From the NCBI RefSeq assembly GCF_046105845.1, contig NZ_CP151004.1: a stretch of 64,000 bases of DNA; one strand, written 5' to 3'. This document shows, one piece after another, positions 41,185 through 43,097 of the stretch. The position numbers and the translations under genes are program-made. This stretch comes from Escherichia coli (GTDB lineage: Bacteria > Pseudomonadota > Gammaproteobacteria > Enterobacterales > Enterobacteriaceae). The notes beneath the pieces were generated by a model, which saw only the letters and a program-made list of their open reading frames with translations, had not been told where the DNA came from and ran no database searches. Within the stretch, counting starts at the first letter, position 1. Each line of letters starts with the position of its first letter.

Positions 41185-41508
41185 ATGTCCCATCAGAAAA
41201 TTATTCAGGATCTTATCGCATGGATTGACGAGCATATTGACCAGCCGCTTAACATTGATGTCGTCGCAAAAAAATCAGGCTATTCAAAGTGGTACTTACA
41301 GCGGATGTTCCGCACGGTGACGCATCAGACACTTGGTGATTACATTCGCCAACGCCGCCTGTTACTGGCCGCCGTTGAGTTGCGCACCACCGAGCGTCCG
41401 ATTTTTGATATCGCAATGGACCTGGGTTATGTCTCGCAGCAGACCTTCTCCCGCGTTTTCCGTCGGCAGTTTGATCGCACTCCCAGCGATTATCGCCACC
41501 GCCTGTAG
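41185..41508 (+). CDS. soxS: AraC-family superoxide response regulator SoxS
   Basis: ORF track 107 aa; recognised sequence. Confidence 0.95.
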   Translation: MSHQKIIQDLIAWIDEHIDQPLNIDVVAKKSGYSKWYLQRMFRTVTHQTLGDYIRQRRLLLAAVELRTTERPIFDIAMDLGYVSQQTFSRVFRRQFDRTPSDYRHRL

Positions 41509-41510
41509 TT

Positions 41511-43097
41511 TTATTGCCCGCGCGTTAACTCCCGCGCGGGTAATTGCTCCATCCATTGCATAAACACCTTCGGCGGCATCGCCTTCGCATAGAACCATCC
41601 CTGGCAATAGCGCACGCCGCGTTTGCGCAGCCAGTTAACCTGCTCCTCAGTTTCGACGCCTTCAGCGATCGTTTTTAACCCCAGACTGTGCGCCAGCTCG
41701 ATGATGTGTTCCGCAATCAAATGACTGGTTTTATGGGTGGTCAGCGTCTCAACAAACGATTTATCGATTTTCAAAATATCGACATTCAATGATTTAAGGT
41801 TATGCAAGTTAGAGTAGCCAATACCAAAATCATCAATTGCCACTTCGTAACCAGCCTGGCGGAAAGCCAGAATAATCGGCGTCATTTTGTCGACATCAAG
41901 AAATGCATGTTCAGTCACTTCAAATTTAATTTGCTGCGGACGCACCGCATATTGCTCTGTTTTCTGGTTGGTTCGCGCTATCAACCGTGACGTATGAAAA
42001 TCGGAGGCCGACAGGTTAATAGAAACATAGCGATCGGCATGTGTTGCCAGGTACACGCCCAGATCGCGGAAGACATTATCAATAACATAATCAGTTATCT
42101 GTTCGATCATCCCCTCCTTTTCTGCCAGCGGAATAAACTCTGCCGGATTCATTACTTGCCCCTGCTCACCAGGCCAACGTAACAATGCTTCAGCGCCGAT
42201 ACATTTTTCTGTTTTGATATCGATTATTGGCTGGTAATAAAGGCAAAGTTGATGTTTTTCGAGGGCGCGTTGCAATTTGCGTTTGGGAGACAAATAGTTT
42301 TGTCGAATACGTAGCCAGAGTAATAACAGAACAAGACTCCCCAAAATACCGGCGGGTAACGCAAAAATAAGATGATTATAAAAATGCGCTATAAGACGTT
42401 GATATGAAGTCGCAACAATGGCTGCAATTGGGCGTTTTGTCGAATAAACTGTCGCATATAAATAGCCATTTCTTTGTACGGTTAAATCATTCAAATGAAT
42501 CAGCGGAGAAAACGTTGCTGCCGAGGCCTCGTTGCTTAACGAGAAAAAGGTTTTCGTTACCGTATCATAAACACCCCATTGCAATGTCGGATCATCAGAC
42601 ATCACTTCACTCCAGAAGAGAGGGTTGATGACCGCCACATAATTTCCCCGCTGCATATAGGTCATTTTATAGCCAGAGAAAAAAGGCGTATCGCGGTAAT
42701 AATAGATAGAAACGTTAGGTTCACGCTTATAATCGGCCGGTGCAATCGTATAGCCGTTTACAGGCGCTATCAGCGATGAGCATAAAAAATGGTTATCACG
42801 GGCATAGATCAATTCATTAATATAAAGATAGCCACGAATAATATTCAACATTCGCTTTTGATGGGCTGGAGTGCAAACTTGCCCCTGATAGCGTTCAGCA
42901 GCATCGCTCACTAAATCTGCCTGGCGAATGACCAGCTCGGATTTATCCAGTGCCAGTTGAGCAAAAGTTTGGAGCTGACTATTCACTTCTGATTTTGCCC
43001 AAAGGAAGGCAATCCATAGCGACAGAATGATGGGAAAGAGAACTAAAAAGATAATGCCCGGCAACGCCAGTAATTGGTGTCGTGCATGATGACTCAT
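41511..43097 (-). CDS. pdeC: c-di-GMP phosphodiesterase PdeC (CSS-motif sensor plus EAL domain)
   Basis: ORF track 41511..43106; ATG 43097 gives 528 aa; EAL motif. Confidence 0.9.

Follow-up and report, generated by a model that had tools for sequence, protein, structure and literature searches.

A 3' hairpin at the two-nucleotide soxS/pdeC junction of Escherichia coli is embedded in the coding tail of pdeC

In Escherichia coli, soxS, which encodes a regulator of the oxidative-stress response, and pdeC, which encodes a c-di-GMP phosphodiesterase, converge with two nucleotides between their stop codons, and the 3' hairpin of soxS is made only when soxS transcription continues into pdeC. This arrangement is real, conserved and ordinary, and it is already known, because it is annotated and the overlap is listed in a published excludon catalogue. 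What is added here is that the junction hairpin is a soxS element under RNA-level constraint, which sits in the plastic tail of PdeC and was spared by deletions of pdeC. We consider it probable that the pair represents a compacted tail-to-tail junction, in which the soxS 3' hairpin is indispensable, the overlap is a by-product and any regulatory effect is secondary.

Results

The soxS/pdeC junction and its conservation

The features of the junction are collected in Table 1, with positions given in the window, i.e., the whole 64-kb stretch of E. coli DNA that was analysed. A preliminary description of this DNA had placed the two stop codons 2 nt apart. This spacing is exact according to the open reading frame coordinates and the RefSeq annotation of K-12 MG1655, in which pdeC (4275471..4277057, plus strand) and soxS (4277060..4277383, minus strand) are likewise separated by 2 nt; an identical gap is given in the RefSeq annotation of the closest complete genome. 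The two genes are adjacent, tail to tail and on opposite strands, as expected for a convergent excludon, and their coding sequences share no nucleotides in E. coli. SoxS is an AraC-family protein in which the Pfam domain HTH_18 occupies residues 28-106 of 107. PdeC combines a CSS-motif domain (residues 40-243) with an EAL domain (residues 273-505), and its last 23 residues lie outside EAL. The pdeC stop codon (TAA, 41513-41511) reads TTA on the plus strand.

Table 1. Features of the soxS/pdeC junction, in window coordinates
Feature	Position	Strand	Description
soxS CDS	41185..41508	+	107 aa; stop codon TAG at 41506-41508
Predicted path of pdeC read-through	41185..41510	-	antisense to the whole of soxS; G-rich, C/G 0.6-1.1
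Spacer between the soxS and pdeC stops	41509..41510		TT, 2 nt; spacing identical in the K-12 annotation
soxS 3' UTR	41509..41551	+	RNA ends in ...GGGUAAUUGCUCCA, 43 nt from the soxS stop codon and 7 nt beyond the stem
Minimal sense/antisense overlap	41511..41551	both	mature soxS mRNA against the last 41 nt of the pdeC ORF
pdeC (formerly yjcC) CDS	41511..43097	-	528 aa from the annotated ATG at 43097
GC-rich hairpin	41513..41544	+	12-bp stem, 8-nt loop: AUUGCCCGCGCG-UUAACUCC-CGCGCGGGUAAU
C-rich, G-poor stretch	41552..41710	+ (soxS-sense)	candidate Rho-utilisation region for soxS read-through, from composition
Exact copy of a MarA box (15-mer)	43338..43352	+	GCAATAAAAGTCACG; possible SoxS/MarA/Rob input to the pdeC or yjcB promoter

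Segment 41100-41800 of the window was matched in 5425 of 5426 complete E. coli genomes, and the 71-nt junction was present at 95.8% identity or higher in 5419 of the 5426. At the level of the family, 80 species-level Enterobacteriaceae loci were collected with SoxS as the query and both stops were located in each; pdeC was missing from 10 of the collected loci. Among the 69 species loci with pdeC downstream of soxS, 65 showed a stop-to-stop distance between -16 nt (overlapping ORFs) and +15 nt. The distance was +2 nt in all Escherichia and Citrobacter, -4 nt in many Enterobacter and Lelliottia (with a shared TTAA or CTAG), -13 nt in S. diarizonae (a 13-nt CDS overlap), and -16 nt in Klebsiella, Raoultella, Trabulsiella, Yokenella and Pluralibacter (a 16-nt CDS overlap, as for the soxS and yjcC ORFs of K. 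pneumoniae). Other loci ranged from +1 to +15 nt, and three Kosakonia had distances of 449-712 nt. Such conservation across E. coli genomes and across Enterobacteriaceae led us to reject an origin of the tight spacing by chance in this one strain. The eight convergent pairs within a 50-kb K-12 segment that surrounds the locus have CDS gaps of 2, 34, 41, 98, 153, 165, 501 and 641 nt, so that soxS/pdeC is the tightest pair of this small sample. It is not a singular case, because 165 convergent overlapping pairs have been catalogued in E. coli.

A stable hairpin within the last codons of pdeC

The junction hairpin begins 5 nt past the soxS stop and lies wholly within pdeC codons 518-528 and the stop codon; since EAL ends at residue 505 of 528, it is encoded by the PdeC tail beyond the catalytic domain. 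A repeat finder returned its arms (41513-41524 and 41533-41544) as a 12-nt inverted repeat with 8 nt between them. As soxS-strand RNA, the hairpin folds at -21.6 kcal/mol (z=-4.8), a value equalled by none of 200 shuffles, and only 23 of 21,319 segments of 44 nt on the plus strand of the whole 64-kb window reached a folding energy of -22.5 kcal/mol or lower. For the opposite (pdeC) strand, the hairpin gave a fold of -18.9 kcal/mol, and its 71-nt context there is no better than shuffles (z=-1.25). No other strong hairpin was found near the soxS/pdeC junction. The preliminary description had also held that the junction leaves no room for separate terminators and that the two transcripts must overlap at their 3' ends. 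Both statements agree with the position of this sole strong hairpin inside pdeC and with a published soxS terminus that lies beyond it (see below).

The hairpin shares several properties with a canonical intrinsic terminator, namely, a stable GC-rich stem-loop shortly past the stop codon, conservation accompanied by compensatory base changes, and a distance of 7 nt from the stem to the RNA 3' end. It differs in that the E. coli soxS stem is not followed directly by a U run and in that the sequence of the tail is limited by pdeC codons. The tail after the full stem, UGCUCCA, contains 2 U in 7 nt, and a shorter-stem reading gives UAAUUGCU. A consensus terminator scan of positions 40500-43500, in which at least 5 T in 8 were required, did not call the junction hairpin.

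An Rfam scan of positions 40000-44000 yielded no RNA family at the junction, and its only match was sraL (RyjA) beside soxR. The sraL RNA (40502-40642, plus strand) and the 3' end of soxR have 8 nt in common and share a hairpin at 40611-40641. At soxRS, genes thus overlap 3' to 3' on the opposite side as well. This second overlap differs from soxS/pdeC in that its hairpin is flanked by U/A tracts on both sides, as in a canonical bidirectional terminator, and in that the partner is a small RNA.

Covariation and retention of the hairpin in the absence of pdeC

An ungapped alignment of 22 Escherichia, Citrobacter and Salmonella sequences (64 columns) placed the hairpin at the same position in all three genera. 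Standard base pairs were found in 85.2% of the alignment cells, compared to 33-50% when the 3' partner was slid by 1-3 columns. Both sides of the stem had changed at four pairs, e.g., UA/CG at 18-47 and UG/GC/GU/AU/CG at 26-39. The observed pairing and covariation score were matched by none of 500 shuffles, which ignore phylogeny in what is coding sequence from related species. The encoded PdeC tail varies among these genera while the pairing of the hairpin persists.

Losses of pdeC provide a second line of evidence. In S. enterica subsp. arizonae, approximately 1.65 kb of pdeC is gone and the soxS-adjacent 84 nt, including the hairpin, are kept. An independent deletion in Escherichia sp. MOD1-EC7003, equivalent to 41577-43285 of the window, has likewise left 68 nt that include the hairpin. 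Intestinirhabdus lacks pdeC and nevertheless has the hairpin, which is followed there by CCUUUUC and thus carries a UUUU tail. A better U-tract than that of E. coli also accompanies the Salmonella version of the hairpin (GUUGUUGU). Since the hairpin survives independent deletions of pdeC, it belongs to soxS. Judged from these sequence comparisons, the junction hairpin is a soxS 3'-end element, either terminator or protective structure, under RNA-level constraint inside a plastic PdeC tail.

Over the wider set of loci, the strongest hairpin within 96 nt past the soxS stop was stronger than all 14-15 downstream background windows in 50 of 80 loci, and its position varied between clades. A second hairpin, formed by the codons of the PdeC motif MPPQEFMxWQQQ, was also considered as a family-wide soxS hairpin. 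It was 93-100% paired only in Enterobacter and Lelliottia and 44-75% paired in most other groups, and CTG/CGG triplet repeats gave it periodic pairing at ±3-nt offsets. Because of this periodicity and the poor pairing outside Enterobacter and Lelliottia, the second hairpin is not claimed as a conserved structure.

The 3' end of the soxS mRNA

The primary soxS 3' terminus has been mapped in K-12 to minus-strand position 4277017, which corresponds to a 3' UTR of 44 nt by inclusive count, from low read counts in uninduced LB cultures (TRS Supplementary Data 4, Nat Commun 2023, PMC10687069). Base-by-base transfer places this terminus at position 41551 of the window. In answer to the check proposed in the preliminary description, the published K-12 map thus puts the end of soxS past its own CDS and inside pdeC. 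With a terminus at this position, the final 41 nt of the pdeC ORF have their complement in the soxS mRNA. The mapped soxS end within pdeC and the RNA-seq-based excludon listing of the pair together support a transcript overlap, to which the pdeC transcript would contribute its own extension. The Adams et al. 2021 Term-seq tables covered here contain an end at the soxS start codon and none at the junction, and neither SMRT-Cappable-seq nor a transcriptional-interference paper has entries for soxS or pdeC.

The distance between stem and terminus (41544 to 41551) is that of an intrinsic terminator, whose RNA 3' ends lie approximately 7-9 nt past the stem; a processed end would also fit. Given the U-poor tail and the lack of a call in the terminator scan, the 41551 end may indeed stem from processing rather than termination. 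If position 41551 is not a termination site, soxS transcription would read through the hairpin, terminate at Rho 100-300 nt further on and be trimmed back by 3' exonucleases to the protective hairpin, and the transcriptional overlap would exceed 41 nt several-fold. The base composition would suit Rho: over approximately 150-200 nt downstream of the soxS stop, the C/G ratio in 78-nt windows is 1.4-1.75, compared to a mean of 1.12 for the whole window. Rho-dependent transcripts also commonly end at protective stem-loops. On the other side, intrinsic termination classically leaves an end at just this distance of 7 nt from the stem, and the Salmonella and Intestinirhabdus hairpins have better U-tracts. 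Taken together, we regard Rho termination followed by trimming as a substantial possibility that falls short of being the probable one.

The pdeC transcript and the origin of the PdeC tail

The TRS data and the Adams et al. 2021 tables covered here contain no pdeC-strand 3' end between K-12 positions 4276900 and 4277499, and the consensus scan of 40500-43500 revealed no convincing terminator-like site on the pdeC strand within soxS. On this strand, the junction hairpin is followed by the A-rich sequence AAAACUAC and is itself made of translated codons. With no terminator-like signal between its stop and soxS, pdeC is predicted to produce transcripts that extend into soxS antisense, and these probably run well into the gene. 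Because it is G-rich, the pdeC read-through RNA would be a poor Rho substrate.

A different fate of the pdeC transcript is suggested by the overlapping bidirectional terminators described for convergent genes such as ynaJ-uspE (Ju et al. 2019; Wang et al. 10.1101/2022.10.23.513370). Here, one hairpin would pause both RNA polymerases, and head-on and trailing collisions would release them, giving ends at approximately 41551 for soxS and 41505 for pdeC. The class consists of convergent-gene hairpins that are unlike intrinsic terminators and do not need Rho (10.1101/2022.10.23.513370). The soxS/pdeC junction resembles it in having a single GC-rich hairpin, located in the zone common to the two convergent transcripts, with no canonical U-tract in either direction and with a 3' end just beyond. 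Further points of agreement are the coincidence of the pdeC-side base of the hairpin with the pdeC stop codon and the minus-strand folding energy given above. However, the soxS-side end alone is documented at this junction, and the datasets covered here hold no pdeC 3' end near 41505. The hairpin is translated on the pdeC strand, so that a coupled ribosome would melt it; collisions would be rare because pdeC is weakly expressed; and the 71-nt minus-strand fold does not rise above shuffles. Collision-assisted termination of both genes at the hairpin therefore seems doubtful to us.

Comparison of the PdeC proteins is consistent with a tail shaped by its genomic neighbour. The sequence is conserved up to ...GW(F/H/Y)FAKA(M/L)PPQEF.W and varies beyond this point in both length and sequence. 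In the group with a stop-to-stop distance of -16 nt, PdeC always ends in QAEI or HAEI, residues that are specified by the final soxS codons read in antisense. It thus appears that the residues of the PdeC tail are simply those that the DNA 3' of soxS happens to specify before an in-frame stop is reached.

Regulatory interpretations of the overlap

A published catalogue of 165 convergent excludons in MG1655, each with RNA-seq transcript boundaries that overlap in at least 50% of 58 transcriptomes, includes the pair as 'pdeC-soxS' (ExcludonFinder, NAR 2025, PMC12288877). For 146 of these 165 pairs, a terminator is predicted inside the transcription unit of the neighbour, and synteny is higher among excludon pairs in general, which are also enriched for stress genes (PMC12288877). 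The layout of soxS and pdeC permits the antisense interference that the preliminary description had suggested, and permits it only. Our literature search found no interference experiment specific to this pair.

In a true excludon, strongly induced soxS would truncate or destroy pdeC mRNA through head-on polymerase collisions and RNase III cleavage of a duplex of at least 41 bp, pdeC read-through would damp basal soxS, and expression of the two genes would be mutually exclusive. Membership of the pair in the E. coli excludome, the synteny and stress-gene enrichment of the class, the tight junction in 65 of 69 species, and the 41-nt perfect duplex that the soxS 3' UTR forms with the end of the pdeC ORF all agree with this reading. 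The soxS/pdeC pair also shares with convergent excludons (Lasa, Toledo-Arana, Cossart; PMC12288877) opposite-strand neighbours, a 3' overlap and a terminator inside the unit of the neighbour. Conservation of the tight junction would look the same if a regulatory overlap had been selected.

The available expression data point in another direction. Paraquat raises both the level of yjcC mRNA and the activity of a yjcC promoter fusion in K. pneumoniae, and mutants of soxRS and of rpoS express less yjcC, which is the opposite of exclusion. A MarA box was located by ChIP-seq in ETEC in the yjcB<>yjcC intergenic region, and an exact copy of it, a MarA-family box upstream of pdeC, is present in the window (Table 1). 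The link between SoxS and pdeC thus appears to be positive and to act at the promoter level, which argues against simple mutual exclusion. The corresponding search for E. coli yjcC expression under paraquat found no report, and its sole E. coli match was a plasmid gene that is also named yjcC. Opposing expression defines the excludon class, whereas the Klebsiella soxS/yjcC data indicate positive co-regulation; the soxS/pdeC overlap moreover enters the CDS and is not limited to the 3' UTR. The junction drifts between -16 and +15 nt and the hairpin site depends on the clade, as if the soxS hairpin alone were constrained, and pdeC is dispensable in several lineages in which the hairpin stays. Based on these results, we consider a true excludon unlikely.

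A more elaborate scheme, in which σS-driven pdeC read-through, rather than soxS, is the active partner, runs antisense across the whole of soxS into the same-strand soxR, damps basal soxS and feeds soxR in stationary phase, while SoxS/MarA activates pdeC through the 43338-43352 box to form an incoherent loop between superoxide stress and c-di-GMP turnover, is very improbable in our judgement.

Discussion

A compacted junction built around the soxS 3' hairpin accounts for these observations as follows. Transcription of soxS would pass its stop codon and the 2-nt spacer and continue through the hairpin, leaving a mature RNA that ends at approximately 41551, so that every soxS message would contain the complement of the terminal 41 nt of the pdeC ORF. 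Transcripts of pdeC, which would have no terminator of their own, would extend antisense into soxS. The junction may have been squeezed until it reached sequences that soxS needs, the PdeC tail then being encoded by the remaining DNA up to the first stop; in Klebsiella-like genera, this tail overlaps soxS coding sequence. Effects on expression through antisense pairing or collision, if any, would be secondary and weak.

Two practical consequences follow for work on pdeC (yjcC). Deletions that lose its last ~45 nt (with a safe margin of ~70 nt) also remove the soxS 3' end, and assays of 'yjcC' near its 3' end that are not strand-specific also detect soxS read-through. The main value of the locus lies in providing a clean example of a 3' hairpin embedded in the coding tail of another gene. 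If the overlap is regulatory, transcription geometry alone would tie the SoxS superoxide response to PdeC-dependent c-di-GMP signalling and biofilm control.

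Conservation and variation of the soxS/pdeC junction

Among the 80 species-level Enterobacteriaceae loci collected with SoxS as query, pdeC has been almost completely lost through two independent deletions of ~1.65-1.7 kb each, in Escherichia sp. MOD1-EC7003 (L003) and S. enterica subsp. arizonae (L006). The soxS-adjoining stretches kept in these two loci contain both the junction hairpin and the site to which the soxS 3' end has been mapped. In Klebsiella, Raoultella, Trabulsiella, Yokenella, Pluralibacter, and their relatives, the soxS and pdeC reading frames overlap by 16 nt, and in every such locus PdeC ends in QAEI or HAEI, a C-terminus that corresponds to the last soxS codons read antisense. 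The junction, tight elsewhere, is split by an insertion in three loci of Kosakonia and a related MAG (L050, L056, and L058), where the two genes are 449-712 bp apart and the inserts share a conserved start (CAACCATCAAAGCAGCG...) and carry their own hairpin. The same insert start is found in Kosakonia sacchari (L053), yet without a downstream pdeC.

Across complete E. coli genomes, the 71-nt junction shows at least 99% identity in ~2,400 genomes and one or more mismatches in ~3,000. Its sole common difference is the soxS stop codon, which is TAG in the window and many E. coli versus TAA in K-12 MG1655.

Coordinates of features at the soxRS locus and of homologous loci
Feature	Sequence	Position	Strand	Remark
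sraL/RyjA sRNA	window	40502-40642	+	Rfam RF01408, 153 bits
Hairpin	window	40611-40641		13 bp
soxR	window	40635-41099	-
pdeC read-through	window	41185-41510	-
Term-seq 3' end	window	41186	+	K-12 4277382 (-)
soxS stop codon	window	41506-41508	+
soxS read-through	window	41552-41710	+
MarA box	window	43338-43352	+	GCAATAAAAGTCACG
Region next to soxS with pdeC deletion	L003	2816-2960		68 nt kept
Region next to soxS with pdeC deletion	L006	2816-3000		84 nt kept
Kosakonia-type insert	L050, L056, L058	2824-3540
16-nt overlap	L023, L026, L027, L034, L036, L040, L041, L045, L046, L057, L059, L065, L072, L073, L079	around 2815-2830

Transcripts and regulatory sites

The C/G ratios of the two read-through RNAs are markedly asymmetric: soxS read-through is C-rich (up to 1.75), whereas pdeC read-through is G-rich (down to 0.59). 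Judged from this base composition, soxS read-through should be a much better target for Rho than pdeC read-through. The Term-seq data of Adams et al. (2021) include a high-scoring 3' end, classed as internal to soxS, that falls on base 2 of the soxS start codon. The RNA ending there would thus be the ~40-nt soxS 5' UTR, which implies either premature termination or a decay product. Upstream of pdeC, ~240 nt from its ATG, lies an exact copy of a MarA box reported by ChIP-seq in the yjcB<>yjcC intergenic region of ETEC. SoxS, MarA, or Rob may act on pdeC or yjcB through this site.

Flanks of the soxRS locus

On the opposite side of the locus, the soxR 3' end and sraL/RyjA share 8 nt. The hairpin found there, with T/A runs on either side, looks like a bidirectional terminator common to sraL and soxR. 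With this overlap in addition to the soxS/pdeC junction, convergent overlaps therefore close the soxRS locus at both flanks.
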